A stretch of 64,000 nucleotides of DNA from a virus, in the IMG/VR virus record IMGVR_UViG_3300035698_014689, positions 30,887 through 94,886 of that record. One strand, given 5' to 3'. Within the stretch, counting starts at the first letter, position 1. Each line of letters opens with the position of its first letter. The notes under the pieces are model-generated. The model was given only the letters and a program-made list of their open reading frames with translations. It made no database searches and was not told the DNA's origin. Below are positions 8,763 through 30,114 of the stretch, one piece after another. Made by a program: the position numbers and the translations under genes.

Positions 8763-9485
8763 TTAAACAGCCATAAATAAATCCGCGTAATTGACAAAAC
8801 CCGAAAGGATGCGGTCAACTTCAACAAAGCCCGTGATCGTGACAACTCCATCATCTCTGCTCACGACACCAGAACCACCCTCTCCCCCAGCACTATAAGA
8901 AACTTGATAATCCGTCCACAATTCCTGAGTCTTATTCCCCTCTACCATATCTGAAAAGGACTTCTCTCCGATACCCGCTTTATCAGGGCCGAGAGAAAGG
9001 CAGATAGTCAAAAGAATCGTGGCTTTTTTGATCAGATCAGGGACGGTCGCTTCGCCGAACGTTCCAACTACTTTAATGTTTCGACGGCCTCTAGGCCAAA
9101 CGCCTGCGCCTGAACGTGAACGTATGTTATACGTGCCCGTGTTGATCAAAATAGAATGAACCTCGGAAACGTAATCAGTGGGTTGCAGATAAGTGTGCTC
9201 AACGGAGCCATCGAAATCAATCTCTTGAACGGAGACAAGGGAAACTATTCTGTAAGGATAACCACCATCTTGGGCGAGGAAAAGACTCTCCCCTCCATTT
9301 CCATTGACGATGACGGTATCTTCTTTCGGATAAAAAATGTCATTACAGCCACTCTCGATCTTAACCTCAGACTCGTCAATCAAGGCTTGCAGTTGCACAT
9401 CCGACCAACCAGTGAAATCGAGAACAGTGGAGCTCTCTGTAGGGCGATAATCCTTCACCTCTTGGACTGTGGCATAGTTACTCAT
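8763..9485 (-). CDS. Head-tail adaptor/connector
   Basis: YATVQEVK N-terminus and NIKV..TFG...VPDLIKKA motif. Confidence 0.85.
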   Translation of the reverse strand: MSNYATVQEVKDYRPTESSTVLDFTGWSDVQLQALIDESEVKIESGCNDIFYPKEDTVIVNGNGGESLFLAQDGGYPYRIVSLVSVQEIDFDGSVEHTYLQPTDYVSEVHSILINTGTYNIRSRSGAGVWPRGRRNIKVVGTFGEATVPDLIKKATILLTICLSLGPDKAGIGEKSFSDMVEGNKTQELWTDYQVSYSAGGEGGSGVVSRDDGVVTITGFVEVDRILSGFVNYADLFMAV

Positions 9486-9522: not shown

Positions 9523-12486
9523 TCATCCCGTCAATGTCCTGAATGCTTTCAATACCGTATCCGTACTTAGTTTCTCCATGCACTCTACTTTACAGTCGCT
9601 CTTAACCAAGTCCTTTTTGACTGATCCCCAGCAGTGGCAATCGTGCTCTGACTCAACGTTCACCAGCGTGTCATAAGAGGACAACCACGCCTTACTGCTT
9701 CCCCCGAATAGTGCCACTGTGGGCTTATCCAAAGCGAAAGCCAGATGAATCGCTAAAGTGTCAACGCTAACAACATACTGCATAGACTCGATATTTTCAA
9801 CCAATTCTTTGAAGTTTTTTGATCTTTTATCCTTCAGACCCCGTATCAAAGGCGTTTTGGCTAATCCTAATTGATGACAGGTGAACCCGTCCGCTTTCAG
9901 TCTCCTCGCTAATTCCAGCCATTTGGACTTGGGCCACTCTTTTATTCGTCGATCAGCATCTTGGTTCATTTGCATGAAGAAGCCAACGCTTTTCTCCAAA
10001 GGCGTGGCGGAAATACGTTTTGGCAGATCAGAGATTGAACCACCCATTCCATTGACTATATGAACCTTCTGCTCCCAGCAACCGTTGTAATCCACTGGAA
10101 TCTCCAAAGAGTCCTGAAGCGGATCAACGGACACCGATACATTATCCAAGAACATCTTGACGATCTCAAAACAGCCTTCACGTGTTTGATAATTTATCTT
10201 GGCTAAAGGGAAAAATTCCTGTGTCTTTTTAACGAGGGCGAAGGACATATAAATATCTCCAGCTCCATACTCACGATGGAAGTTCACCCGCCCTTTTCGA
10301 TAAGCCTCGGGATAAGAATCACCAAGTGTTTTCCGTATCAATTGGCGATACTTCGGAATGACAGAATCAATCGTACATTCCGCCATAACTTTTCTTTGCA
10401 GTTTGATGCCGTCAGTCTTCCTTATACGTGTGATTTCACTCCGTAAGGAGTCCAAGACAGGCATCCCAGCTTGCGACTCCACAAACCTCATTTCCTTCTC
10501 GAAAAAGATGGGAAGCGCACCAACTTTTGTGGCGATGACAGGAACGCCAAAATATCCAGCCTCAAGACAGACCATAGGAAAGCCCTCTTCCCTTGACAAA
10601 ACAACGAGTGCGTCAATGCTTTTAAAGAACGTTCCAATATTGCGGCTTCTCGGCAGAAATTTAACTCTATCCGCATAACCTCCATCCTTGGCTATATTCT
10701 CAAGTAAAGTCAGGGAAATTTCATCGGTCTCCATTCCCTGCACGACAAGATTGCAATCAAGTGCACTCATGTTCTCTACAAGCCAACGGACGTTTTTATT
10801 GTAATCAAATCGTCCTAAGAAGCCTATCGTCGTGCCTTTCTCAAACATCTTTTTACTCTCGCCTGAAAAGGCCGTTACTGGCAGAGGATTCGGAATAAAG
10901 ATAGACTCGGGAATCTTCTCACTTATAACAGGGGACACACAGGTCGTGGAGTCGATAACGTCTCTCCACTTCTCAGTGAATTTCACGCCCTCCTCGTCAT
11001 AGTGAGTATGAACTACCCTGATTGATAAGGGTCTGAGATTTCTCATTGTCTTCAATGAGATGGGAATCGCTTCATTCATACCATACCACAGAACAGCATC
11101 CTGCTTCTCGAACTCATCAGTTGCCAGTTCAGAGCCACCTTTGAAGATAACGTTGTCAAAACGACTCAGGAGCTCCTCCTTGATTGACATCTGTTTTCTT
11201 GGTTCGATCGAATCAAAGGCGATCACGGTAACATCAAAGAACTTCTTCAGGCCCTCGGCGATCGTCATCATGCAGGTCTCCCCTCCACCTAGAACCATAT
11301 GAGGGAAAACGACAGCTATCTTCTGAACCCGCTTAATAAAATTCAAATCTCTTTGGCGACTACTCTTCAAAGGCTGGCCCTTACGATCTTGGAACCACTG
11401 AGACTCGTGCTCAATAGGCCCGACCGTTCCCTTAATGGCTTGAACCACATCCTGAGGACTTATCGACAGCATACAGGAGTAACCGTTATTGCAATCGGAA
11501 GGCCTCCTCCTTCGACAACCCACACAATCAAAGCTGGACTTCAGCGGATGAACAGTAGCGTACCTTCCAGCAACAGCATGAGGACTTGAAGGGCCAAACA
11601 AAGCAATCGTCTCCAGTCCGATCATTCCAGCAAGATGCAGAAAACAGCTATCAACGCAGACGAAATAATTGCAGACAAACATTAAACGAACCTGCTCAAG
11701 AACGCTGAAACCAGTGCAGTCCACAACACCCTCTAATCCGAGACTATCCTGACCGAAAACAAGCACTTCGAAATCACTCCTCTTAACAATCTCTATGAAC
11801 GCCCTCCAATTTTCCGCTGACCAGTCTCTGTGCAAAGCGGAGGATTTCGGATGTATTCCAATCACTTTTCTCTTTCCAAAATTGTGAGCTATCTCCAGCG
11901 TCTTGTCCAATGTTCTAGGCATGTTTATAGGAACCTTGGCGACTGGACAGTTATCAAGCCCTACCATCTGATACGCTCGTTCGTAATAATCGTGACCTGT
12001 GATTGTTTTATCCGTCTCAATCATAAAATCGGACAAGTCCAAAATCATATCAAACTGATCTTGGAAACGCACGTCGTTAGTTCGCTGTATGTCAACGAAT
12101 TCATCGACAAAGGGGAATAATGGGGTGAAGGGTATAAAACTCTCACAAACGGCTAATACGACTCTGCATTCGACCTTTTTCAGGTATCGTACAACAGAGG
12201 TCACAATCAGAGTGTCTCCAATCCCACCAGCATTCTTAACGAGGATCGTCATCTTATGCCAATTTTTTGGTAAGGTTCTAAACACGTCCATAGGAGGCTT
12301 CGAGAATCCCTCAAGAAGTGTTTCCCCTTCAGAGGCTGGCTCGATAACTTCAATGAATTTACCTGTGAGTAAAAGCTTTCTTCCCTCGGGGGAACTGACC
12401 TCAGTGGGCTCCGCATCGTCCAAACTGAGAACCTGCTTGGTGAAAGGCGTAGTATATCCTGATGCTCCAACTAGACGAATTAACAT
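9523..12486 (-). CDS. Triple-domain glycosyltransferase (GT9-GT4-GT9) with a short N-terminal YqbF-like domain
   Basis: GT9 #1: GGIGD, RDWSAENW, VDSCFLHLA, LFGPS. GT4: LGGGE, GFLGRF...KN, EEGFPMVCLEA. GT9 #2: GAGD, KEWP...W, VDTLAIHLA, LFGGS. Confidence 0.9.
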   Translation of the reverse strand: MLIRLVGASGYTTPFTKQVLSLDDAEPTEVSSPEGRKLLLTGKFIEVIEPASEGETLLEGFSKPPMDVFRTLPKNWHKMTILVKNAGGIGDTLIVTSVVRYLKKVECRVVLAVCESFIPFTPLFPFVDEFVDIQRTNDVRFQDQFDMILDLSDFMIETDKTITGHDYYERAYQMVGLDNCPVAKVPINMPRTLDKTLEIAHNFGKRKVIGIHPKSSALHRDWSAENWRAFIEIVKRSDFEVLVFGQDSLGLEGVVDCTGFSVLEQVRLMFVCNYFVCVDSCFLHLAGMIGLETIALFGPSSPHAVAGRYATVHPLKSSFDCVGCRRRRPSDCNNGYSCMLSISPQDVVQAIKGTVGPIEHESQWFQDRKGQPLKSSRQRDLNFIKRVQKIAVVFPHMVLGGGETCMMTIAEGLKKFFDVTVIAFDSIEPRKQMSIKEELLSRFDNVIFKGGSELATDEFEKQDAVLWYGMNEAIPISLKTMRNLRPLSIRVVHTHYDEEGVKFTEKWRDVIDSTTCVSPVISEKIPESIFIPNPLPVTAFSGESKKMFEKGTTIGFLGRFDYNKNVRWLVENMSALDCNLVVQGMETDEISLTLLENIAKDGGYADRVKFLPRSRNIGTFFKSIDALVVLSREEGFPMVCLEAGYFGVPVIATKVGALPIFFEKEMRFVESQAGMPVLDSLRSEITRIRKTDGIKLQRKVMAECTIDSVIPKYRQLIRKTLGDSYPEAYRKGRVNFHREYGAGDIYMSFALVKKTQEFFPLAKINYQTREGCFEIVKMFLDNVSVSVDPLQDSLEIPVDYNGCWEQKVHIVNGMGGSISDLPKRISATPLEKSVGFFMQMNQDADRRIKEWPKSKWLELARRLKADGFTCHQLGLAKTPLIRGLKDKRSKNFKELVENIESMQYVVSVDTLAIHLAFALDKPTVALFGGSSKAWLSSYDTLVNVESEHDCHCWGSVKKDLVKSDCKVECMEKLSTDTVLKAFRTLTG

Positions 12487-12557
12487 TTCAGTCTCCTATT
12501 TCATTATCCGTTACTTACCATTCATTAAGAATAACACACAACTTTTAAAATACAAAT

Positions 12558-12590
12558 AAAAAAGCCCCTCTTTCCGAAGAAAGAAGGGCT
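12558..12590 (-). terminator. Intrinsic terminator after the major capsid gene
   Basis: AGCCCTTCTTTC-TTCG-GAAAGAGGGGCT followed by a T run (cUUCGg loop). Confidence 0.9.
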
Positions 12591-12614: not shown

Positions 12615-13610
12615 TTATCCAGCGTAGTCCGTTCCAGACTCGGAAACGTTATGCGCTATTACACACATATCTCTGTTCTCGACTTGGAAGTCCGCACGGA
12701 AGTGGATTGTAACTTCCCACATATCTTTACGAGGCTGACGATCCCACTCAATCGTGATGTCACGCTGAATGAAATAAATCAGGTTCTGCAAAGGTGTCAG
12801 GATTATCTTCGTTCCATCGGAGACAGATGTTCCGATCGAAAGGTCTTCAGGCATCAACGGAACGTCCACCATCGGAATTCCAAGAGGACTCCGATTAACG
12901 TTACCCTGAGTAGCTGTATCACCAGCTCCAGTCTCAACTTCCGATATGTCCCACATCCACTTGTCATACACTGACGTAGGAGTCAGGAAACGATAAGCGG
13001 GCTTCGCAACACGATAGCGTGATGGAATCTTGCGCTTCATGTCATAGAAGAGCTTCTTGGAGGAAGCTTTCCCACCAGCATTGATCTGCTGTGCGGCAGG
13101 CGTATTGTCGGTCAGTATCTTGACGATACCATCATTCGGGCCGAGAAGGTTATTCTCTTTCGATTGCAGATCACCAGTGGTGAGAGACTCATCACCTTCG
13201 ATAAACGCCATCTCACTGTCGATGGAGATACGCTTCGAGAACATTGTCAGGAGCGTGTCACGAATGCTACGCCCTTCCAAGTTGTCCTCAGTGAAGTCGG
13301 TGGTCAAATCAAACGCAGAACGGTACTTCTCAGTACTGTAATGAATCTTACTCTCAGACGGCACATTCGTCGTGACGGAAGTAGTGGTATCAGCACCCTC
13401 TGTCACGATGTTACCGAGATCAAGTTTATTTATGTCACCTTTCTGATGATTGATTCTGCGAGTACGAACCTTTTTGATAAGGGTCGAAGTATCGATAACG
13501 AGATCGATGAAACGGTTCGCTTGCTGGGTATTCAGAACGGAGTTGGGAAGGTTTGCTTCGTCAATCTCGCTCTTCGTCATCAACTTGTTCACATCTAGTT
13601 TGTCGCTCAT
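12615..13610 (-). CDS. Major capsid protein (HK97 fold, PBSX XkdG-like)
   Basis: 331 aa; LNTQQANRFID, EDNLEG, GIPMVDVPLMP and ILTP.QNL motifs. Confidence 0.92.
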   Translation of the reverse strand: MSDKLDVNKLMTKSEIDEANLPNSVLNTQQANRFIDLVIDTSTLIKKVRTRRINHQKGDINKLDLGNIVTEGADTTTSVTTNVPSESKIHYSTEKYRSAFDLTTDFTEDNLEGRSIRDTLLTMFSKRISIDSEMAFIEGDESLTTGDLQSKENNLLGPNDGIVKILTDNTPAAQQINAGGKASSKKLFYDMKRKIPSRYRVAKPAYRFLTPTSVYDKWMWDISEVETGAGDTATQGNVNRSPLGIPMVDVPLMPEDLSIGTSVSDGTKIILTPLQNLIYFIQRDITIEWDRQPRKDMWEVTIHFRADFQVENRDMCVIAHNVSESGTDYAG

Positions 13611-15829: not shown

Positions 15830-16045
15830 TCACCTCTTTCCAAATAATGCGTGTCTTTTAGCGGTGACTTCCATATCAAAATCAATATAAGAAGTCAACG
15901 TCCAATAATCAAAAATAGCTCGCAATTCACTGACAATCTCTTTTATACTCAATTCATAATAAACACCTCGATACTCAGGAATCATTCTATGAACAAAAAA
16001 ATCTCTTTCCTCCCCTTTTTCAGGCTTTCTCCAATCATTTAACAT
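15830..16045 (-). CDS. Hypothetical protein
   Basis: 71 aa; overlaps the MuF stop codon. Confidence 0.55.
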   Translation of the reverse strand: MLNDWRKPEKGEERDFFVHRMIPEYRGVYYELSIKEIVSELRAIFDYWTLTSYIDFDMEVTAKRHALFGKR

Positions 16046-18740
16046 ATAAAACCTCCTTAACTACCCATTCTTTCTCTGGAAATGGGGTTGGAAATACTCG
16101 ATGGCTAATCAAAACATCATCTAGTTTGACCTCTACATTATATTTAAAAATCTTCTCCCCTTTCTGAGCTACTTTAGCCGCTTGAGTAGAACCACCACTA
16201 AATTCAGAGACTCCTATTCCTCCTACCTTCTTAACTACTAAACCTAAATGGCCCTCCGTATCTGCTCTACCAAGTATTCCAATATCTCCATACATCTGTG
16301 AAAATACTTTCTGCGATGTATCCTGCATCAACGATGCCGCTAATCTGAATTTCTCACCATGCGCACCATCAAGTGCCGCTTCAAAAATCTTCAAAGAACT
16401 ATGACTGGCATCATCACCAAAATAATTCTGCAAATTAAAACTCTTAGCATAATTCGTCGGATGAACCTTATACGCCAATCCTTCAGGAACCCACGAAGCT
16501 GTTACATTATAATCATTCCCATATACAGTCCACTCCCCTTTAAAACCTTCAATATAATCGTCCCATCCTTTCTGTTTCGCATAAGTAGACGCTTCAGCTC
16601 TTGTTGCAAAGGATTTCGATTGCAAATGAGGATATGAAACATTCTCCGCACGTACCATTTTATCTATATCAGCAGTCCCATTAAGCAAATCGAATTCAGT
16701 GCCTACACCCAATTTTGATGCCTCTTCTCTCATCCCTGTTCTAAGGGCCTGAGCCGCACTATAAGATTGCTCCTCTGTTTCAGCCAAAGCCGTCTTATCA
16801 ATCAATCCATCCAATGGCGAAACCACAGGAATCATAATTCCACCTGCTGGCCCACCAGTCCACGGCTGTAAAACAAGAGCCGGATCACTTAAATCAGGCT
16901 CTTCCACACATCTGCAATTATGACTTATTACACCATTAGCAATATAACTAAAATTATCTTCAACATGAAAGTTATAGAGGGACTGAACCCTAGATGTTTT
17001 CTTATATTCAATACTTTTAATAGGAACCTCAATAAACTCATAAGCTCCTTCATGGTTCAAAGATAATAAAGACTGCTCATCTGATTCAATAAATTCATTT
17101 TTCCTCCCATATAACCTATGTACAATCACATGGTCGGGGAATGCACTTAAAATCTCCACATCTCTTTTATGTTGCTTCTCTTTATCCTGATGCCAATACC
17201 ATCCATCTATCTCTATAAACCTCTTTTCGGATGGAACATAAAAATCTACAAATCTATTCCCTACAGAAAACTGTTCCTGAAAAACAACACCGCTCTTAAC
17301 CAAGGAGTCACGAAACAAAACCTCAATTTTCGTGGGGCCTTTCTTATTCCAACATGCGGGCTTACCTATTTTCCATAAATCAGAGGCTTTCATATAACCC
17401 CCTTCTCCATACTTCTCAACCAAACATTTGCGAGCACGTAAAGTTATACCATCAGCGTCTCTTACTCCTGAAGCATATTCACTCTTTAATTGCTCAGTCG
17501 TTTTCTTAGATGTATTCTTTCGATGCTCAGGGTCCTTCCATTGATTAGAAGATGAGACATGACTTGAACAACTACGAGAACAATACTTGCGATAGTAGGG
17601 CATTTTCTTTCCACATAAAGGGCATCTACTTGCTCTCACATAAAGGACATCCTCAAGAGTCAGATTCTCAGCATTAACCCATCCCCCAGAAGTCAAGAAT
17701 GGATGCTCCTCAGTAACAACTAAACTATTAGAAGCATACTTATTCTTCTCTCCAAATTTAATCCTCACAATTGGACGACCACTAGGAATCTTATACTTTC
17801 CTAAATAAGTCTCAAGAACCCTCTTATATTCTCCTGAATGAGTTAATACCAAATTTCCTACTTGAATATCCTTAATCTGCTTCTTCCCTTCTGAAGTCCA
17901 AATACCTACCTGAGGGTCAATGAAGCAATTTATTGCATCCGGTCCGTCTCCTACGTGCATCGCACCACTAGGATAAGATTCGGCAATTGGAATAAAACCC
18001 ACGCTCTCATTGGCCTCGTGAGCGGGTCTGACACGCAAATCTCCCACAGTGAACCAACGTTTTCTCTCCACTCCAGAACGTTTGAACATCTCATAACGAG
18101 CCGTTCCAATAGCTGTCTGCACCTCTGTCTGCACAATCTTATACGCCCTTGCTGGATCAATACCCATCACCTCGATGACTTTCATCGTATCATAAACAGT
18201 ATCACCGTTCTTAAAAATACCAGTGGCAATCTTCGCCTGAGCATTGTGAACCATTGTGTCAGTTGTGATCTTTGCCATCTCCAAAGCTCGTTGATCTAAT
18301 TGCAGAATCAGCTCCTCGTCGGTCAGATCGAAAACGTAGGTGACTGGATCAGCCTTGCGTAGAACCCTCAAAGACTCAAAGGAGGAATCAATGCCAAATT
18401 CGAAGGCTTCCTCGTTCATTTCTCTCAAGAACTCTTTTACAGGCGTTGTGTCGGGATAATCAAAGGTCTTAAAGATGTCCTCGGCAAATTTCAGCCCTGC
18501 CTGCCTACGACTGGTTGGATTACGTATAACAGTGGACTCTTTATACGCCTCAAAGAACGCACGCTGTATTTTCAGCTGAAGTAATTGATCTGTGATAGGT
18601 TTCCACCACGAGGCGTATGTCTTCATAGTGGGAGGAATATAAGACCGTTCAAGCGTCATCCTCTCACCGCCAGTAGCAACCTTACTCAGCAAATAAAAAT
18701 GAATCTGCCGACGTATCTCATATTTCTCGGTACTATTCAT
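16035..18740 (-). CDS. Head morphogenesis protein (MuF/SPP1 gp7 family) with an intein and a C-terminal extension
   Basis: IVQTE, KRWFTVGDLRVRPAH and IN|CRC after intein removal. Confidence 0.9.
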   Translation of the reverse strand: MNSTEKYEIRRQIHFYLLSKVATGGERMTLERSYIPPTMKTYASWWKPITDQLLQLKIQRAFFEAYKESTVIRNPTSRRQAGLKFAEDIFKTFDYPDTTPVKEFLREMNEEAFEFGIDSSFESLRVLRKADPVTYVFDLTDEELILQLDQRALEMAKITTDTMVHNAQAKIATGIFKNGDTVYDTMKVIEVMGIDPARAYKIVQTEVQTAIGTARYEMFKRSGVERKRWFTVGDLRVRPAHEANESVGFIPIAESYPSGAMHVGDGPDAINCFIDPQVGIWTSEGKKQIKDIQVGNLVLTHSGEYKRVLETYLGKYKIPSGRPIVRIKFGEKNKYASNSLVVTEEHPFLTSGGWVNAENLTLEDVLYVRASRCPLCGKKMPYYRKYCSRSCSSHVSSSNQWKDPEHRKNTSKKTTEQLKSEYASGVRDADGITLRARKCLVEKYGEGGYMKASDLWKIGKPACWNKKGPTKIEVLFRDSLVKSGVVFQEQFSVGNRFVDFYVPSEKRFIEIDGWYWHQDKEKQHKRDVEILSAFPDHVIVHRLYGRKNEFIESDEQSLLSLNHEGAYEFIEVPIKSIEYKKTSRVQSLYNFHVEDNFSYIANGVISHNCRCVEEPDLSDPALVLQPWTGGPAGGIMIPVVSPLDGLIDKTALAETEEQSYSAAQALRTGMREEASKLGVGTEFDLLNGTADIDKMVRAENVSYPHLQSKSFATRAEASTYAKQKGWDDYIEGFKGEWTVYGNDYNVTASWVPEGLAYKVHPTNYAKSFNLQNYFGDDASHSSLKIFEAALDGAHGEKFRLAASLMQDTSQKVFSQMYGDIGILGRADTEGHLGLVVKKVGGIGVSEFSGGSTQAAKVAQKGEKIFKYNVEVKLDDVLISHRVFPTPFPEKEWVVKEVLYVK
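16917..17927 (-). mobile_element. Intein (337 aa) in MuF carrying a DUF559/Vsr-like endonuclease
   Basis: Starts CFIDP; block B VTEEHPF; ends ANGVISHN followed by C; internal FVDFY...IEIDGWYWH. Confidence 0.9.
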
Positions 18741-18741
18741 T

Positions 18742-21528
18742 CTATCCTTCAGCCATCTTCTCGGCGATTTTATTCAATTTATCCCCAGCCAATTTCATCT
18801 CCGCTTCTGTTGGCATCGCTTGAATCTCATCAACGAATAAAGGAATACCGCCAGTGAGAATAAAAGGCTTGTCCCCACCTTTAACTGGAGGCCCTAATTG
18901 AGCTATGTCACGGATGTCATTTATACTGATCACACCCTTCTCCATGAACGCCAGCAGGTTCTCCCGCTGATTCGCTTTATCTGTGACATCCAAAGATTCG
19001 AAAACGATCTTAACTGAAGTCGTTCCAAGTCCGTAATGGAAAAGCCTAGAAAGCATCTTCTCCCATCTACGTTGAAGAGGATCGACAATACGGTTCTTAT
19101 AGTTGCTGGACTGTGCATCACCTTTACCAGAGCCAAGACTGGCTGAATCGGTCATCCCGACAATCGCGGCAGACATACCATGAGCAACCAAAATTGCTTC
19201 TTGATTATTCTTGCGTGTATCCTGAAAAGAACCCTCCTGCGTATCATCGGTCAACTTCTTAAATTCAACCTTGACATCCCCTCCAGCGGCTGGGATAGGA
19301 ATGACGAGTGTTTTATGCGCCTGCCCTTTTATATCCTGAGCGAAGTAACGCTGGATGACTTCCTTGACTTCGTTGGAAAGTTTCGCCCCAGTGATAATGA
19401 CTGCATACTGCGGAACTGCGTTATGATCGAAAAACTGCAAGAAAAAATCACGTATGTTGATATTCCCCATAATACTACCTATCGCAGGAATCACGTCGGG
19501 GACGCCATAATACATCGACTTCGGATGTGGCTTTGTCAGCATCATTACTTCCGTCGCTGAATCTTGAAGTCTCGATACATCACTATTCAAATCATCCTTA
19601 CCTTTCATGTTCCATTTTCCAGCACTGAATTTGCCGTCCTTAGCGGGGTCGAAAGGCAGAGGATTATTATTTATGTCGGTTCTGTTCGGACTCAAAAGTT
19701 TTCTTCCAAAAGGCAGGTAGTAACGATAAGTGCCACTCTTGCCCGAATTTGCTCCCCCCAGTTCCGCGAAACCCGTCCAACCTTTAAGGACGCGCATCCG
19801 AGCCACAGGAATATGATAGAGCCTTCGGATTTTCTTGTCCAGTGCTCGAACAACCTCTATAAAGCAATAACCCACAGACTCATAGTCAGTGGCGGCTTTT
19901 TCGAGCACACCCTCGAAGCGGTCGTTCTCATTGCAGTTCTCAATGAAATCCTCGACCTCAACACTCTGAGACGAGGATTCTGTGTCCTTCTCATCCTTAT
20001 TCTTTTTAGCGATGACATATTCACGACCAACGGCATCCATAACTTTCGTCTTCACGCAATTGTGAGTGACCAAGCCATTCGCTACAAAAGTGTGTGAACC
20101 CTCGACCTCAAGATTGTAAACAGAGCCAGAAAAAGATTTCTGTTCAGAACTGATGACTTTTCTCAAAAGAACCTCACCAATACCTAATAGTGAAGTAAAA
20201 CAATTTCTTTTCCGAGAATTAGTACATGACCCCACAGAATTGGAAAGGAAATCCTTAGCATCCTGACCTCTCAAATCAAGTCTATACACTCTTCTTTTTG
20301 AAATGGGCTGTTGCTCATAGACAGAAACATCATATCTCAAATAAGATAAAAGTGTGAATAACTGTTTAGATAATTCTTTGGAGGTAGTAACGAAAATACA
20401 ATCACCATTCTTATTGATATGGCCATCACCATCAAAATAAGAACGCAGAAGAATTAAAATCTGTCTCAACTCCAAACGAGCTAAGAAGTCTTTCTGAATT
20501 CTTTTTCCATAGCAAAACTTTCCACCCAAAAAGGTCATTAACTTATGAACATACGGTTTCGAACAAACAATCTTGCCTGTATTTTTCTCCTCATCAAAGT
20601 AAACCTTCGAAGTGGAGTCGAAACAATTACTTAATCCATTCATCACTCTTTGATGATAATCCTTCTCATCTTTGTGAAAAGTGAATACAGTCGAATAATT
20701 ACATTGATATAAATTACGTTTATTTATGAACTCATAATCAGAGCAACTTCCTTCCGCCAAATAAAACCCCAGTAATTCACAGAGCTCATCCGAGGCGACA
20801 ATCTTCTGTCCCTGAAAAACGAGTGCTGTTTCATCAACCATTTTCCATAAAGGCAGGGAACCAACGATAAAATCCCCCACAGCAATCTCGGATGCGTTTT
20901 TCCAAGAAAGTAATTCATTCGCCTTATCACTTAAAAGTACACCCTCTCCCGATAAGCCACTGACTCTTTTTTCTCTTGTTATCTTCGCTCTAAAATCAGC
21001 AAATGAACTGTCAACTACTAAATAAGGATGCTCTGATGTAGAACTTATTGTTCTCAATCCATGAACATCTAAAAGAACAAGCTCCTCCTCCACATCAAAT
21101 TTCATTACATCTGTTACTTCATAAAAATCATTGTTATGTGAAAGAACTCTTTCCCCCTTCTTAATAGAAGCAATAGAACGACTCTCTAAATCTTTCGTTA
21201 AAACAGTGACATCATCGGTAAAGCAACGATAATGAACCTCGTCAACATCCAAAAACTTCGCCATCGTCTCAGGATCAAAGGGAGGGTAAACAATATCTTG
21301 TGACGTGACCTCGTCATCCTCGTCCTTGGTGTCGGGCTGATTAGAACCTTCCATCTCCTTCTCGATCAACGTCTTGGCTTGCTGACCCTTCTTCATCAAA
21401 TCCTGTGCCGATATGACCTCTCCATCCGACATAATAAAAGCAGAGTCCACAATCGGCTCATCACTTACAGAACTTTTCGTCATTACCTTATCTCTTTTCC
21501 GACCTACGCGTCTGTGTAACTTTCTCAT
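18742..21528 (-). CDS. Portal protein (PBSX/XkdE-like) with an intein
   Basis: PPFDP, YYGVPD, FFDHNAVP and GVISINDIR motifs; downstream of TerL. Confidence 0.92.
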   Translation of the reverse strand: MRKLHRRVGRKRDKVMTKSSVSDEPIVDSAFIMSDGEVISAQDLMKKGQQAKTLIEKEMEGSNQPDTKDEDDEVTSQDIVYPPFDPETMAKFLDVDEVHYRCFTDDVTVLTKDLESRSIASIKKGERVLSHNNDFYEVTDVMKFDVEEELVLLDVHGLRTISSTSEHPYLVVDSSFADFRAKITREKRVSGLSGEGVLLSDKANELLSWKNASEIAVGDFIVGSLPLWKMVDETALVFQGQKIVASDELCELLGFYLAEGSCSDYEFINKRNLYQCNYSTVFTFHKDEKDYHQRVMNGLSNCFDSTSKVYFDEEKNTGKIVCSKPYVHKLMTFLGGKFCYGKRIQKDFLARLELRQILILLRSYFDGDGHINKNGDCIFVTTSKELSKQLFTLLSYLRYDVSVYEQQPISKRRVYRLDLRGQDAKDFLSNSVGSCTNSRKRNCFTSLLGIGEVLLRKVISSEQKSFSGSVYNLEVEGSHTFVANGLVTHNCVKTKVMDAVGREYVIAKKNKDEKDTESSSQSVEVEDFIENCNENDRFEGVLEKAATDYESVGYCFIEVVRALDKKIRRLYHIPVARMRVLKGWTGFAELGGANSGKSGTYRYYLPFGRKLLSPNRTDINNNPLPFDPAKDGKFSAGKWNMKGKDDLNSDVSRLQDSATEVMMLTKPHPKSMYYGVPDVIPAIGSIMGNINIRDFFLQFFDHNAVPQYAVIITGAKLSNEVKEVIQRYFAQDIKGQAHKTLVIPIPAAGGDVKVEFKKLTDDTQEGSFQDTRKNNQEAILVAHGMSAAIVGMTDSASLGSGKGDAQSSNYKNRIVDPLQRRWEKMLSRLFHYGLGTTSVKIVFESLDVTDKANQRENLLAFMEKGVISINDIRDIAQLGPPVKGGDKPFILTGGIPLFVDEIQAMPTEAEMKLAGDKLNKIAEKMAEG
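20059..21225 (-). mobile_element. Intein (389 aa) in portal carrying a LAGLIDADG endonuclease
   Basis: CFTDD...STSEHPY...LLGFYLAEG...SYFDGDG...ANGLVTHN followed by C. Confidence 0.92.
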
Positions 21529-24588: not shown

Positions 24589-24807
24589 CTATAGCCTGCT
24601 TTTGATCATTTGCATCTGATTCTTTACAAAAATGTCCGCACTCTCACACATCTCCGACACTAACTGGGGAAAAGAGCATTCAGGCTCCCACCCCAACTCC
24701 TCCCGAACACCACTGCTATCACCGCATAAAACATCAATCTCAGCCTCACGAAAAAACTTGGCATTGATTGAAACAACGGAGCCATCTAAATCGAAGAAAG
24801 CCAGCCA
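24589..24807 (-). pseudogene. gmd: C-terminal remnant of GDP-mannose 4,6-dehydratase
   Basis: INAKFFREAEIDVLCGDSSGVREELGWEPECSFPQLVSEM matches the Gmd C-terminus; the Rossmann fold and catalytic core are absent. Confidence 0.75.
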
Positions 24808-25051
24808 ATAAATGAATCTGATGAACATCCGCACTGCCAAAATTCTTCCACAGAAGAAGTGCCTCTCCTTCGACACAAAGAAAATACTCTTTGAATTCAG
24901 GGTGAGAATGAAATCCTCTTTTCTTCCCTTTCGTAATATGAACAAGACTGAACTCTAAAACAGGCTCGTCGGGGAGCCATGTGAAAATACCTCCTCTGCC
25001 ATCAATAACGGTATTCTTATTACACGTAGAATAAATTATTTTAGTAGACAA
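24799..25051 (-). pseudogene. Truncated cupin (FdtA/QdtA-like sugar 3,4-ketoisomerase or epimerase)
   Basis: DGRG and RGFHSH..FKEYFLCVEG motifs; the second cupin motif is missing; TTG start after an AGGAGG RBS. Confidence 0.65.
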
Positions 25052-25052
25052 G

Positions 25053-26210
25053 TCACGCCCTCCTACATTCTGAAGCAAGTTCGAAGCAAGCACACCTGAC
25101 ATCATCTTCAGTCAATGATGGACTGCTTGGCAAGCAGACTATGTTTCTCCACAGAAAATCAGCCTCCCCAGTACACAAAACATGTCTCGCCTCTGTTGGA
25201 GCGAGTGTTTCAATCGGATAAAATCCGGGCCTACACTCTATTCCCTTCTCTATTAAAGCGAGTCCAATACTCTCAGCGGAACGTCCACCATCCTTCAAAA
25301 CAAAGCAGTTCAACCAAGCAACAGCATAAACGGAGTCATCACTTAAATAATCAGAGGGGGACTGGAAGTAACCAAACTCGGTTAACCCAATACTCTCAGC
25401 CTCTCTACGATAAAGCTCAGCAATACACCTACGTCTATGCAAATGCTTTTGAACATCCTCAACGGCGGCAAGAGCCACAGCTGACACTAAATTTGACAGC
25501 AACCAGTTGTTTCCCTCGACATTCGTGAAATACTTGTCCCACAGTCCCTTCGCCACACGTCCCCTGTCAGCGATAATATCAGCTTGTTTAATCAGCTCCT
25601 CATCAAAAGAGACAATCACCCCAGCTTCACAGCTTCCAACCAATTTTTCCGCCCTGCAAGAAAACGTGGCAACACCCCCTATACGTGCAATTGAGTGCAT
25701 CTCTCCCGATTTCCTTATTTTCGCCCCGTGAGCCTCCGAACAGTCATTCACTAAAAAGATGCTATTCCGATCACATAAGGAATCTATTGCAAGCGTGTCC
25801 TTTGCTGGCGTGCCATACAGGTGAACAAGGATCACAGCCGATATATCATATTCGAGGATTGCACGTTTCAAAAGACGCACATCCATACCAAACGTATCCC
25901 TCTCCACATCCACAACTACTGGTACGAGACCTGCACCCTTAACAGCCTGCCCTATTGCAGAGCACGTATAACTGGGAATAACCACCAACGATCCCTTTGG
26001 CAAGCCCCGAGTCATAAGAGCAATCTGCAAGGCGGCAGTCCCAGTATTCACGGCCTTGGCGAAGGGAACATCCACAAACTCAGCAAACGCCTTTTCAAAT
26101 CTCTTAGAGAAATCTCCTCGACAAGCTAACCAAGTGGTATCAAAAACCTCCGATACGTACGCACGCATTTTCAGCGTGACGGAGGGCTCATTCAGACGTA
26201 ACTTTTTCAT
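25053..26210 (-). CDS. DegT/DnrJ/EryC1/StrS PLP-dependent sugar aminotransferase (perosamine-synthase-like)
   Basis: NTGTAALQIAL, VHLYG, NDCSEAHGA, FS...K (PLP lysine), GIECRP and CLPSS motifs. Confidence 0.92.
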   Translation of the reverse strand: MKKLRLNEPSVTLKMRAYVSEVFDTTWLACRGDFSKRFEKAFAEFVDVPFAKAVNTGTAALQIALMTRGLPKGSLVVIPSYTCSAIGQAVKGAGLVPVVVDVERDTFGMDVRLLKRAILEYDISAVILVHLYGTPAKDTLAIDSLCDRNSIFLVNDCSEAHGAKIRKSGEMHSIARIGGVATFSCRAEKLVGSCEAGVIVSFDEELIKQADIIADRGRVAKGLWDKYFTNVEGNNWLLSNLVSAVALAAVEDVQKHLHRRRCIAELYRREAESIGLTEFGYFQSPSDYLSDDSVYAVAWLNCFVLKDGGRSAESIGLALIEKGIECRPGFYPIETLAPTEARHVLCTGEADFLWRNIVCLPSSPSLTEDDVRCACFELASECRRA

Positions 26211-27679
26211 CCTTCACTCCTTTTGCATCCAGCGCCTCTAAATCAAAAACGGGATACTCTTTTAAACATGTGTCTTTTGCGAATGCACAAAACTGCCTAT
26301 AGCAATTATTCCAAGACTCTTTCTTCATAGAGCCCGCTCCCATTTGATCAACATTCTTATACATCTCTTTCATCTCCCGCACAACCTCCTGAAGCTCAGG
26401 CCATTCGTTTGCACCTCTTTTTTCGCCTCTTTCAGTATTTTAGTGCACAGGTGAGTCACAAAGGGTTTCGACCTAAAATGACTCATATCCGCTTCGTAAT
26501 CCTCGTAAATCTTGTCGAACAGTGTTTTAATGCTGGCATCCAACGAATTATTCTCTTTTACCCACTGACCAAAGCCCTGAACCTTTTTGACTGCATCATC
26601 GTAGTTCATAATAGCGAAACGAAGCATCGCCCTCGCCTCATCCTCCGTGTCATAAAAGAATGGATATTCTGGAGGGAGCAACCCAGCATTATTCTTCCGA
26701 TTAACTATAACGATGAGACCAGCATAAATCTGCTCAAAAACGGCGCTAGGAAGCATACGCAGGGTCTGAGGAAAAATACTTATGTGAGACTGCACCATCA
26801 CATCCCACGCTTCCTCCTGAGACAGGTCTGTGAAAAACTCGACCTCCTTCGCCTTTTCCTTCACAGAGGCAACCTTCCCACTTTTTGAGGGAGTCGTAAC
26901 TTTGATCTCAACATCCTTGCCAGTTTTATATGCCAAGTCGTAACACTCCGTAGCGAAATCACCTCCCTTCGTAGCGGTGAAACGACCACCAAAATAAAGA
27001 GTCGTTTTTTCAAAGCGTTTTCCTTTCGTTCTTTTCACGGCCTCATCGATGCTTTGAGTATTCAGAGCACCATTGAGAATTATTATCTTTTCCTGCATGG
27101 CTTTGACTCTGTCTGGTGCAACAAAGAATTTTGCTGAGTCCACAGCCTGCTTCTTTGAATATGCAGTCGCCAAAACAGGGTAGTCTATAAGCGAGTACGA
27201 TAGGGAGTGCCATGCCATATTCGCATAATTCGCATTCGAGCATTCCGAGTCGTACATACTCTTCGTATTATAATCCCACAGAGCAACTCTAGGTGTGTGC
27301 CCCCACTGAGCTTGCCGAGCAACTCACACATCTTGCCAGCCTTCCCAGCGTTATTACTCAGAACCAAATCAAATGTCCCGTACTTGCCAACCCACGGATC
27401 AATCTGCTGAAAAAGCTCCTCCGAGAACATCCATTCATTTATATCTCTGTTGGAATAAAGCGGCACGAAGATTTTCTTTAAACGAGGCGCATCCCACTCG
27501 TCCTCAAATTTCCAATAGTGCAGAGGGGAAACTCCCTCAACTTGCGGAAGTACCCAGTAAAAAAAGATGTCGTCTCGATACCGTGAAATTGACTGAATCA
27601 AAGACCTCGTTAAAGTGAAGCTGGAGTCAGCGTTCAGATTAGGCGGATACTCATAAGTGTTCAAAATAAGAATTCTCAT
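26188..27679 (-). CDS. GT-B fold glycosyltransferase, broken by two 1-nt homopolymer frameshifts
   Basis: Three ORFs join into one protein of about 497 aa if C5 at 27300-27304 becomes C6 and T6 at 26418-26423 becomes T7. YFGGRF...K and FEQIYAG motifs; resembles the upstream GT. Confidence 0.75.
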
Positions 27680-27680
27680 A

Positions 27681-29141
27681 TTACTCCTTGATAAAGATAC
27701 TCTCGTCCTTACGTACCAGACAACCAGTGGCAAATAATGCTCTCTCAATTGAAATTCTATTCGATTTCAGGAATGCAGACATGAACTCCTCTTTCAGAGC
27801 CTTCTTACACGCCATGTCATAAAAAACAGGGAGAGTTACCTCCTTACCCGCATTCTCTTTCATAACCTCGCCAAAGACAACGTCAAGACGGGCCACAGCA
27901 CCCGACGCTCTGAATCTGTCTCCCTGTCGCACATAACACTCCTCTAAAACATCAGACCAAAAGTGACCTATGTTCTCTAACGAGAAACGCTCACGATACC
28001 CCTCCAACCACGTCTTAACCTGATCCTTAACTTTCTTCGGATTACGTGCACATAAATGCACTAACAAATCAAAGTCCTTATCAGATTGAGCGATCAACGG
28101 GTAATCAGGAAAACGACCCTTATTCCAAGGCTTCTCACGAATAACAGGAACCGCCCCAGAAAAAATAGCTTCAAACAGTGCGATGCCCGTTCCTTCGTAT
28201 TCAGTCCACATAAGATAGAAATCTATGTTCTTTAAATTCTCAATATAATCCGCTCTCTTCACATTTGTCAGGAAAGTCAGACGTTCCCCTAAGTTCTCCC
28301 TCATGCCACAAATAACGTCATGCGTTTCAGTGTCCAAATCTTGCTGAGTCATGCAATAAAAACCCACGTTCTTTTTCCCTACACAAGCGGACTTCACGGA
28401 CTTTGCTAAATCAGACCAGTGACGCTTCGACTCCATCGAACCAGCATGACCGAAAGTAGCTCTCTCCTCGGGTCTCTTATGGACTGGAACCTCATCCGAG
28501 GGCATACTAGGAATAAATGAACGTGCGTTCAACTGTTGCTGTTTAACTGGTGACAGATATTGCTTTGCCAGTTTCGTGAGCCAGCCTTGATCCGCTTCAG
28601 TAAAATTCAAAGTCAGGTCAGAGGCTAACGCACTCGTTATGGATTGTAACTCCCCTTCAGGTGAGCCAAGTTTCGGAAGGTTCTTATCCGCTCCAGACTC
28701 GCTCAGAAAATTCAAAATACTTGGCGAGATATGAGGAAATACGTATTTATTCCCCCCGAAATCGTGGGGCATCATCTGAGCGGCTAACTGCTGATTTGCA
28801 GTGTAATACCACGACACGAATAAATCCACCCTGCGGGAGTCCTTACTCGCAAGCCACTGTAACATCTCGGGATGAAATAACGGAGGTGCAACACCATTAA
28901 ATCCGTCCTGTCCTTTACGAGCCTCAGCACCGTGACAGGTGAAGGGAAGAAACTCTATATCCAGTCCATCGAAGAAGCCATCCACCTGAATCTCACTCTC
29001 CTCGTCGGGATGGAAAAATATCCAGTGGACATCAGACCTGACTTTATTGACGGACTGAATTATCGAGCGTGAAAAAACGCATTGACTTATTCCGTCCATT
29101 CGCTTCGCAGTATATCCCCACCATAAAAAACATACATTCAT
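27681..29141 (-). CDS. GT-B (GT4-like) glycosyltransferase
   Basis: FGHAGS...KRH and YEGTGIALFEAIFSGAVPV (EX7E); start moved to the ATG with a GAGGTG RBS. Confidence 0.85.
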   Translation of the reverse strand: MNVCFLWWGYTAKRMDGISQCVFSRSIIQSVNKVRSDVHWIFFHPDEESEIQVDGFFDGLDIEFLPFTCHGAEARKGQDGFNGVAPPLFHPEMLQWLASKDSRRVDLFVSWYYTANQQLAAQMMPHDFGGNKYVFPHISPSILNFLSESGADKNLPKLGSPEGELQSITSALASDLTLNFTEADQGWLTKLAKQYLSPVKQQQLNARSFIPSMPSDEVPVHKRPEERATFGHAGSMESKRHWSDLAKSVKSACVGKKNVGFYCMTQQDLDTETHDVICGMRENLGERLTFLTNVKRADYIENLKNIDFYLMWTEYEGTGIALFEAIFSGAVPVIREKPWNKGRFPDYPLIAQSDKDFDLLVHLCARNPKKVKDQVKTWLEGYRERFSLENIGHFWSDVLEECYVRQGDRFRASGAVARLDVVFGEVMKENAGKEVTLPVFYDMACKKALKEEFMSAFLKSNRISIERALFATGCLVRKDESIFIKE

Positions 29142-29151
29142 TTGAATCACC

Positions 29152-30114
29152 TCAGATAGATTGAATTTCCTTGATGACTTTACCAAGGCGCTTGTCAATA
29201 AACCACTCGACTAAAGAGCAGAAATCATCAGCAAAGGATAAGGTCTCGGCCTTCTTTTCGTCATACAGAAGAGGGCCACACTTTTCAACTACTTCAGGAT
29301 TGCATATATCGCTCAAAATCATAGGATATACGTTTGTCAAGTGTGAACAGATAACCATCCACCAACTATGACCGAATTCCTCCGCTGACTTGAAACCTGC
29401 TGACATCAATTTATCAGCCCTGTTTCTCCAGAAAATTTTCAGGATTTCTTTTCCCGCGAAAGTATGCTGATCGAGTGCTGTTATCATCATCCCGTCCTTC
29501 TTCTTATCACACACCTCAAATTGAATGGCATCCACTGGAGCCAGACATCCCTGACGTTCCGAGCACTCCAAGATGTAGGGAAGGAAAAGGGACTGCTTCT
29601 CATAATCCCACTTATTAAAACAACGTTCGCAAAAATCAACTAAATCAGCATCATACCCCAGCTCCCTATAAATACTGAAACTTCCCTCAAGCAAACCACG
29701 CTTCATAAGGTATTGCAACTCCTCGGGAAATTTCTTGGATAAAGCCGTTTCATTATTTGCATTATAAGCGAGGGAAGAGAGCTCACGGGACTTTGGAGCG
29801 CCACAGAGTGAAACGATCCACTGCTCTAATTCAGACCAGTTTTCTGAGTTGGGGTTCTTCTCCCATATTGGAGCGAATGTGGAGCAGACTCCAGCGCACT
29901 CCTCGAACATAATTGTCAACAGTCTGCGCCAAAGTGTGAAAGGATCATACAACCACACCATACGACCATATCGAACAGCGTCCTCAACGTTACCACGTCT
30001 AATCGCTTTTTGAACGGCGCTTTTGCAGGTATAAAGGGCGGACTTACTGGGTTTCTCAACATCCTTCCATTCAGGGAAGAGATAGGGCTGTACTTTTGTT
30101 TCTATCTTACTCAT
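29152..30114 (-). CDS. Protein with a MgsA/RarA C-terminal-like helical domain (no ATPase domain)
   Basis: KSAVQKAIRRG...LWRRL..I..EE and ALDQHT..G motifs. Confidence 0.65.
   Translation of the reverse strand: MSKIETKVQPYLFPEWKDVEKPSKSALYTCKSAVQKAIRRGNVEDAVRYGRMVWLYDPFTLWRRLLTIMFEECAGVCSTFAPIWEKNPNSENWSELEQWIVSLCGAPKSRELSSLAYNANNETALSKKFPEELQYLMKRGLLEGSFSIYRELGYDADLVDFCERCFNKWDYEKQSLFLPYILECSERQGCLAPVDAIQFEVCDKKKDGMMITALDQHTFAGKEILKIFWRNRADKLMSAGFKSAEEFGHSWWMVICSHLTNVYPMILSDICNPEVVEKCGPLLYDEKKAETLSFADDFCSLVEWFIDKRLGKVIKEIQSI

Follow-up and report, generated by a model that had tools for sequence, protein, structure and literature searches.

A GT9-GT4-GT9 fusion protein encoded directly after the major capsid gene of uncultured phages, a candidate enzyme for virion glycosylation

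We found that an uncultured phage of ~95 kb encodes, between its major capsid protein gene and its head-tail adaptor gene, a single polypeptide that joins three glycosyltransferase (GT) domains in the order GT9-GT4-GT9, and that a GT9-type gene occupies the same place in most relatives of this phage. The genome is a linear IMG/VR record of 94,886 bp (CheckV completeness 79%), and the window, that is the whole stretch analysed here, comprises 64,000 nt at positions 30,887-94,886 of this record, IMGVR_UViG_3300035698_014689. The gene lies at 9523-12486 of the window, on the minus strand like all window features described below, and is a single uninterrupted open reading frame (ORF) of 987 amino acids (aa) with an ATG start and no stop inside. 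From the N-terminus, the protein consists of a 47-aa domain, a flexible linker, a GT9 domain, a GT4 domain and a second GT9 domain. We give a probability of roughly one half to the reading that it is a late, low-copy enzyme that glycosylates a protein of the virion. The original prediction, made from the letters of this DNA without database searches, had described such a 987-aa ORF between the capsid and adaptor genes and had quoted its N-terminal sequence; the gene is present at these coordinates, and the quoted residues are identical to its translation.

The same prediction had proposed the GT9-GT4-GT9 architecture, which Pfam searches recovered and which homologue alignments support by the conservation of its catalytic motifs. 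The first GT9 domain (residues ~70-360; 11407-12279) is modelled as a GT-B fold with a predicted local distance difference test score (pLDDT) >90, the GT4 domain spans residues ~385-725 (10312-11334) and the second GT9 domain residues ~730-987 (9526-10299). PF01075, the GT9 family, matched the whole protein with 88.5 bits over two stretches, the better of which covers residues 195-322. In a six-frame search of the genome the two stretches scored 46.4 and 43.7 bits, both above the cut-off of 22 bits; the latter value belongs to the second GT9 domain, where TIGR02193 also matches residues 844-933. The GT4 assignment is based on PF00534 (67.1 bits, cut-off 26.4) and PF13692 (64 bits, cut-off 27) over residues 547-659, and residues 388-652 align with the WlaC/PglH structure 6eji. 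The second GT9 domain is collinear with the C-terminal half of P0002, a GT9-GT9 protein.

In an alignment of 15 homologues, the first GT9 domain has an invariant GGxGD motif (residues 87-91) as well as invariant H212, W222, D279, S280, H284 and G287. Across 16 to 44 homologues D91, D279, S280 and H284 stay invariant, and the motifs are invariant in single-GT9 relatives too. In the profile of this domain, the GD, 'H..AS.P.RRW' and 'DSGFAH.AG' motifs align onto their counterparts in E. coli RfaF. The GT4 domain invariably retains GGGE (400-403), G558, R559, K564, S631, E634, P637 and E642, and E634-x7-E642 represents its E-x7-E signature. In the second GT9 domain G741, G743, D744, Y800, W804, C952, C965 and C969 are invariant and H914 and K849 nearly so, while the aspartate of the donor motif varies (D/E/N). 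Because these catalytic motifs are invariant in the homologue alignment, all three domains look catalytically competent and appear to be under purifying selection.

The scores of the protein remain far under the equivalog cut-offs for the lipopolysaccharide (LPS) heptosyltransferases I, II and III (TIGR02193, 61.2 versus 134.6 bits; TIGR02195, 52.6 versus 185.3 bits; TIGR02201, 40.9 versus 170.2 bits), and judged by these values the domains are GT9 members, but not orthologues of LPS-core enzymes. Our fold comparison, which concerned the first GT9 domain only (model pLDDT 89), returned by Foldseek the Veillonella GT9 structure 3tov (E 1.6e-14), RfaF (1psw, E 2.6e-13), TibC (4rap, E 3.5e-13) and WaaC (2gt1, E 7e-12); a profile search of the PDB found RfaF and 3tov, not TibC. 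By its fold, the domain is no further from TibC, a protein O-heptosyltransferase and thus a precedent for acceptors that are proteins, than from the LPS enzymes. With such near-equal matches to RfaF, TibC, WaaC and 3tov, the fold cannot separate a lipid-linked from a protein acceptor.

Among 1.84 billion cluster representatives, HMMER, run exhaustively, found 15 end-to-end homologues of 972-1019 aa (27-42% identity, E 1e-100 to 1e-221), which align from residue ~1-14 to the end, and the architecture is therefore not that of a chance ORF. Shorter relatives include P0002 itself, a ~650-aa form with only a stub of the N-terminal half of GT4, as well as stand-alone GT4 and single GT9 proteins. A protein of 1322 aa, P0022, was considered as a capsid-GT fusion and rejected, since it is another multi-GT protein. 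Among cultured phages (50,697 records, tblastn) there was no match to the 987-aa protein, and all capsid matches were at most 28% identical, so that the phage has no cultured relative in this set. The genomes of 185,579 prokaryotic species contained no close homologue either; their best matches were single GT9 genes of 24-26% identity with no phage neighbours. A scan of GTDB genomes with the capsid profile found one 2.7-kb contig, binned with a Gemmatimonadaceae metagenome-assembled genome. Single-protein queries with P0001 and P0002 against IMG/VR retrieved no loci; profile queries did.

With the GT profile, 31 loci were found in IMG/VR, and a capsid profile that was blind to the GT gene found 49, the capsid homologues of which are 42-66% identical. 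We ran four hidden Markov models (HMMs) for parts of the protein over all ORFs of the capsid-anchored loci and counted synteny in those 42 loci in which 1.3 kb or more of sequence follows the stop codon of the capsid gene. A GT9-type gene starts within 700 nt of this stop codon in 37 of the 42; two more have a GT9-type gene 2.9 or 5.1 kb further on, and three are without any. The original prediction had named retention of the gene in this slot by relatives as a check on its proposal, and these counts show that most relatives do retain a GT9-type gene there. Capsid identities of 42-66% mean that the gene persisted while the phages diverged deeply, and by its distribution over these loci it behaves as a core gene, not as a moron.

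The form of the gene differs between relatives. Most commonly the slot is occupied by a single GT9 of 360-410 aa without the N-terminal domain, which is thus not needed for the slot's enzyme. Triple fusions with the N-terminal domain are encoded in the window and in L004/L049, L005/L042, L046, L051 and L006, a second, smaller triple-fusion group comprises L008/L043 and L063/L064, and L002 contains a decayed form that consists of the N-terminal domain and the C-terminal half of GT9. The GT gene tracks the capsid tree, in which the forms that bear the N-terminal domain are found mainly in one clade. In L076, a sister of this clade, a stand-alone ORF of 78 aa with an N-domain-like pattern and a basic tail directly follows the capsid gene. 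Its match is weak (5.5 bits to the N-domain HMM, and a sub-threshold match to DUF7302), and with the sole exception of this weak candidate there were no stand-alone copies of the N-terminal domain in single-GT9 relatives. The triple GT gene appears to be broken in L007 and L069, which represent one 5.3-kb contig: its middle part is on the opposite strand, with N-domain and GT9 on one strand and the GT9 end and GT4 on the other, either by inversion or as an assembly artefact.

Adaptor homologues follow the capsid gene at a distance of 1.0-5.6 kb in the relatives, and the interval between both genes also harbours GT2, GT8 and sulfotransferase-like genes. A class I methyltransferase of the Methyltransf_24 family (E 7e-18) is encoded between the capsid and triple GT genes of L046 (L046:7081-7602). 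The occurrence of these GT2, GT8, sulfotransferase-like and Methyltransf_24 genes suggests that the glycan is being diversified.

In the window, the capsid gene (12615-13610) encodes a 331-aa protein with HK97 fold (PF05065, 27.5 bits; phrog_1623, E 1e-64), and the adaptor gene (8763-9485) a 240-aa protein (phrog_442, E 1e-12) that is 33% identical to the syntenic gene product of L002. An intrinsic-terminator-like hairpin at 12563-12590, between the capsid and GT genes, has a 12-bp stem and a TTCG loop, then TTTTTATTTG; the stem is G+C-rich, with 6 G-C pairs in 12 bp, and is followed by a T-run. The strong terminator that had been proposed behind the capsid gene is thus present, and it recurs in most relatives: a hairpin and T-run of differing sequence follow the capsid stop in ~23 of 33 distinct relatives. 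Reading the sequence further, we noted a Shine-Dalgarno motif, AGGAG (12493-12497), 6 nt before the ATG of the GT gene at 12486.

The N-terminal domain (residues 1-47; 12346-12486) has a predicted beta-beta-beta-alpha-beta structure, a YqbF-N-like fold with pLDDT 84-95 in two models, one by AlphaFold2 of residues 1-375 from a 44-sequence alignment and a separate one of 53 residues from 28 sequences. In the larger model, residues 1-47 (pLDDT 88-95) are followed by a low-confidence linker at ~50-68 and by the GT-B fold (>90); modelled alone, the domain kept its secondary structure at pLDDT 85. The linker (residues 48-69; 12280-12345) has pLDDT 51-68 and is length-variable and indel-rich in homologue alignments. 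Structure prediction of this segment, as the original prediction had proposed it, thus indicates a domain that folds on its own with high confidence and is followed by a flexible linker. Across 28 homologues E34 is invariant, and P14 and F44 are nearly so.

Two independent fold searches placed Bacillus subtilis YqbF (2hjq) first. Foldseek, run against 350,542 PDB chains, gave it a template modelling score of 0.68 (probability 0.84, E 0.64), followed by N-terminal domains of ribosomal protein L9. VIA-align, run against 48,161 representatives, aligned residues 2-50 of YqbF with 49 of 53 residues (root-mean-square deviation 2.1 A) at Z 6.5, a value below 8, which can mean a common small fold; runners-up were GINS B-domains (Z 5.0-5.4) and the C-terminal domain of lambda gpFI (2lsm, Z 4.7). 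In the ESM Atlas, the structural neighbours were small proteins (62-150 aa) from Uroviricota, with Rho_N in one cluster, as in YqbF-type proteins; a feature search of the same atlas with the N-terminal domain gave only scores <0.8. At the sequence level, YqbF (PF14553) was absent at E<=10 from Pfam searches of residues 1-76 and 1-50 and from the six-frame genome search, and phmmer with the domain had no match in the PDB. The earlier guess that this segment resembles YqbF therefore holds for the fold, and not for the sequence. The modelled fold resembles the N-terminal domain of YqbF, which may or may not reflect homology, and recurs in small phage proteins.

In lambda, the gpFI gene sits between the capsid and adaptor genes, and in B. 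subtilis yqbF follows yqbE; here, the gene with the N-terminal domain stands directly after an HK97-type capsid gene. The gpFI protein links the capsid with the terminase-DNA complex (PMC13595911).

Several lines of evidence favour a virion protein as acceptor. The GT gene is near-core and has stayed in one position after the capsid gene while the capsids diverged deeply, its expression is predicted to be late and attenuated, further sugar-tailoring genes accrete in the same interval, and a phage-type small domain is fused to the enzyme via a flexible tether. Moreover, a second GT-bearing protein is encoded among the tail genes. This 1219-aa protein, which combines GT2 (E 3e-9) with a sialyltransferase-like region (phrog_4603), is encoded ahead of the window (G000:C1:17607-21266, corresponding to L036:2607-6266, minus strand) in the distal tail gene region, six ORFs downstream of the 1335-aa tape measure gene.

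The fusion protein could thus represent a phage-specific enzyme that assembles a glycan with one polypeptide, in which two GT9-type domains (inverting, heptosyltransferase-like) are arranged around a GT4-type (retaining) domain. It would be produced late and in low copy, by transcripts that read through the terminator after the capsid gene. On a virion protein, the enzyme would most likely assemble a short oligosaccharide, in which up to three kinds of linkage could occur; the likeliest acceptor is the major capsid protein, modified either before the head forms or while it assembles, and the 47-residue YqbF-like domain on its ~20-residue flexible linker might dock it onto capsid or procapsid subunits. 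This acceptor, the sugars that serve as donors, docking by the N-terminal domain and the benefit for the phage are what we infer; the benefit could consist in shielding, adhesion or stability. The tether to the head, the virion glycan and the mimicry of host LPS that the original prediction had suggested would likewise be hypothetical.

A number of points weigh against this proposal. The likeness to YqbF exists at the fold level only (Z 6.5, no HMM match), and YqbF has no demonstrated capsid-binding function. Since single-GT9 forms without the N-terminal domain are in the majority, docking by this domain is not a general mechanism. In some relatives, genes for lipase, peptidase, thioredoxin and lectin-like proteins are found in the interval as well, which makes it a general hot spot for cargo. 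A comparison with the three relatives that have no GT, among them L073 and L074, singled out no candidate acceptor site, as none of the Ser/Thr columns of the capsid protein is specifically lost in them. Characterised GT9 enzymes act mostly on LPS cores, and the phage is uncultured and known from its genes alone, so that the acceptor is one that we infer.

GmhA, of the ADP-heptose pathway, was not found in the phage genome (94.9 kb, CheckV 79%). A sugar-nucleotide cluster at 24589-29198 of the window adjoins genes for a ParB-domain protein and terminase; it encodes a DegT/EryC1-type aminotransferase (E 7e-61), two weakly GT-B-like ORFs and a 118-aa remnant, which matches just the C-terminal end of GDP-mannose 4,6-dehydratase (GMD). 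The aminotransferase gene and the GMD remnant also count in favour of virion glycosylation.

The main rival of virion glycosylation is a modification of the host envelope, in which the enzyme would act on the LPS inner core or on a lipid-linked glycan at the inner membrane and thereby mask the phage receptor. Addition of heptose-type and hexose-type sugars could then lead to superinfection exclusion or to less sticking of progeny to debris. In its favour, GT9 is the family to which the LPS heptosyltransferases belong, and RfaF and heptosyltransferases I, II and III gave the best matches by sequence and by profile. Moreover, the capsid-adaptor interval of relatives is a hot spot for cargo, and a phage without GmhA would rely on heptose that its host produces for LPS. 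We nevertheless regard this as rather unlikely. The equivalog cut-offs are missed by a wide margin (61 versus 134.6, 53 versus 185 and 41 versus 170 bits), and a gene of the late head operon that follows the capsid terminator would come late for LPS remodelling. Its position is fixed in 37 of 42 relatives, unlike that of typical seroconversion morons, N-terminal domains of this type occur in small phage proteins, and a close cellular homologue is absent from the 185,579 species genomes. A target elsewhere in the cytoplasm, such as a non-virion host or phage protein or a small molecule, would make the post-capsid position an accident of an insertion hot spot. The interval is such a hot spot; position and presence of the gene have been kept through 42-66% capsid divergence, however, and additional GT genes are found beside it in the interval, which leaves this explanation improbable.

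To an equally small degree we would credit an encapsidated enzyme, fixed as a whole (110 kDa) to or inside the head by its N-terminal domain, which, as part of the virion, would act beyond the cell that made it, for instance on the surface of the next host or on glycans in the environment. The activity of a GT-B enzyme outside the cell is implausible because it needs cytoplasmic nucleotide sugars, low-copy expression behind a terminator argues against stoichiometric decoration, and single-GT9 relatives lack the N-terminal domain. What would fit such an enzyme is the architecture of N-terminal domain and flexible linker, together with the fold neighbours YqbF and gpFI-C that are encoded beside capsid genes and the extra domains of the neighbouring MuF head protein. 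Least credible, and very improbable in our view, is glycosylation of the phage DNA, with sugars added to hypermodified bases near packaging for the evasion of restriction. PF00303, PF12851 and PF00145 had no match in the 94.9 kb (CheckV 79%), that is no thymidylate-synthase-type hydroxymethylase, Tet/JBP dioxygenase or C5 methyltransferase was found there, the best fold matches are GT9 enzymes and not T4 beta-glucosyltransferase, and the position of the gene is tied to the capsid gene and not to replication or modification genes. In favour of DNA as a target, phage GT-B enzymes can put hexose, heptose and 3-deoxy-D-manno-octulosonic acid (Kdo) on 5-hydroxymethylcytosine (5hmC) DNA (bioRxiv 10.1101/2023.12.21.572611), and the ParB-domain gene and the sugar-nucleotide genes adjoin the terminase gene.

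Some observations on the head genes and on the capsid-adaptor interval stand apart from the question of the acceptor. Single-GT9 relatives encode a conserved protein of ~95 aa without a Pfam match between the GT9 gene and the adaptor gene (L009:7476-7763, L021:7454-7741, L033:7063-7359, L017:7669-7959, L055:7098-7388, L065:7066-7359 and L019:7052-7360). It has the pattern ...GCTEF.V.....S...AL.N..GLH...EF......GE...F.L...GI..V.VKGDGG.A...GVV and may be a small head accessory protein. Other small ORFs of the interval in several relatives start with a hydrophobic segment that looks membrane-like at the N-terminus and end in a coiled-coil-like tail, which is unexpected for a head module (L009:7151-7462, L021:7189-7452, L033:7403-7693 and L017:7090-7458). 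The capsid gene of L003 (9618-11483) is split into parts of 227 and 126 aa by a 255-aa LAGLIDADG endonuclease ORF, an intron or intein-like invasion. In the window, a MuF-like head protein of 901 aa (16035-18740) has Hint/intein and DUF559 endonuclease matches, and the 928-aa portal protein (18742-21528) has a long N-terminal extension ahead of its portal core with weak matches to the same phrog_36001 as the MuF-like protein; these two virion-assembly genes probably contain inteins. Ahead of the window, a MoxR-type AAA+ ATPase (464 aa) adjoins a 786-aa protein with a CobT-like VWA C-terminus (G000:C1:11105-14908, L035, minus strand).

If the capsid is the acceptor of the GT9-GT4-GT9 enzyme, virion glycosylation would be widespread and evolvable, with relatives that carry variable extra GT and methyltransferase genes, and it would rest on protein glycosylation by GT9. 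To our knowledge, the latter is so far known only from the heptosylation of bacterial adhesins, and we know of glycosylated phage particles only from a few mycobacteriophages, in which the glycan shields virions from antibodies. More tentatively, and with more doubt than confidence, we suggest that the YqbF-like domain is a general capsid-docking adaptor for enzymes, captured in this clade from a stand-alone gene like that of L076 by fusion to the three-enzyme assembly line, and that the major capsid protein is heptosylated and hexosylated in a widespread group of uncultured ~100-kb phages. Such a docking adaptor would extend virion glycosylation well past actinophages and provide a first function for post-capsid domains of the YqbF and gpFI-C type. 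The family offers clonable test objects and a testable function for the orphan YqbF-type domain.

Freeman and colleagues reportedly described, in 2023, virion glycosylation of the mycobacteriophages Che8, Corndog and Myrna. That mycobacteriophages glycosylate their virions with GTs of their own is established (PMC12619734, PMC11256854), and in those of cluster F1 the GT genes are located near the 3' end of the genome (PMC11256854). Our phage resembles this system in that several phage GTs occur together, proposed or shown there to act on capsid or tail proteins, while here the GT genes are found in the head and tail modules and are conserved with structural genes (37 of 42 relatives). The mycobacteriophage GTs, however, are separate proteins and are not encoded after the capsid gene, whereas here GT9, GT4 and GT9 are fused with a small N-terminal domain; no evidence points to an actinobacterial host. 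The TibC/AAH autotransporter heptosyltransferases (4rap/4rb4) share the GT9-type GT-B fold, and TibC, a dodecamer with an iron-finger, transfers heptose to protein serines, but identity is just 14-16%, and TibC is a single-domain bacterial enzyme that acts on adhesins. WaaC and WaaF (2gt1, 1psw) have PF01075 in common with the phage protein, and their GD catalytic and DSG..H.A donor-site motifs align. In contrast to them, the phage enzyme is phage-encoded, triple-fused, located in a head operon and equipped with a phage-type N-terminal domain, and its scores are under the equivalog cut-offs.

With the N-terminal domain of YqbF and the C-terminal domain of gpFI, the phage protein shares a small beta-beta-beta-alpha-beta fold and a post-capsid gene; both, however, are small stand-alone proteins and not enzyme fusions, and there is no similarity at the sequence level. 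The chlorovirus protein PBCV-1 A064R combines three sugar-tailoring domains in one polypeptide and builds the glycan of the capsid protein. It belongs to a eukaryotic giant virus, though, and its GT-A-type rhamnosyltransferase domains and methyltransferase domain are unrelated in sequence. A similar slot logic, a small protein and then a transferase, is found in a cultured phage, Pseudomonas phage D3 (NC_002484, GenBank annotation), where the capsid gene is followed by a 95-aa orf6.5, the sialyltransferase-like orf7 and the adaptor gene; the GT family of D3 differs. The D3 orf6.5, examined as a relative of the N-terminal domain, is not detectably related by HMM. Phage GTs for virions are thus an already known kind of system. 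New are the in-frame GT9-GT4-GT9 assembly line and its fusion to a YqbF-like domain, and, as far as the loci compared here indicate, the GT9 gene as a near-core companion of the capsid gene in a clade of ~100-kb uncultured phages.

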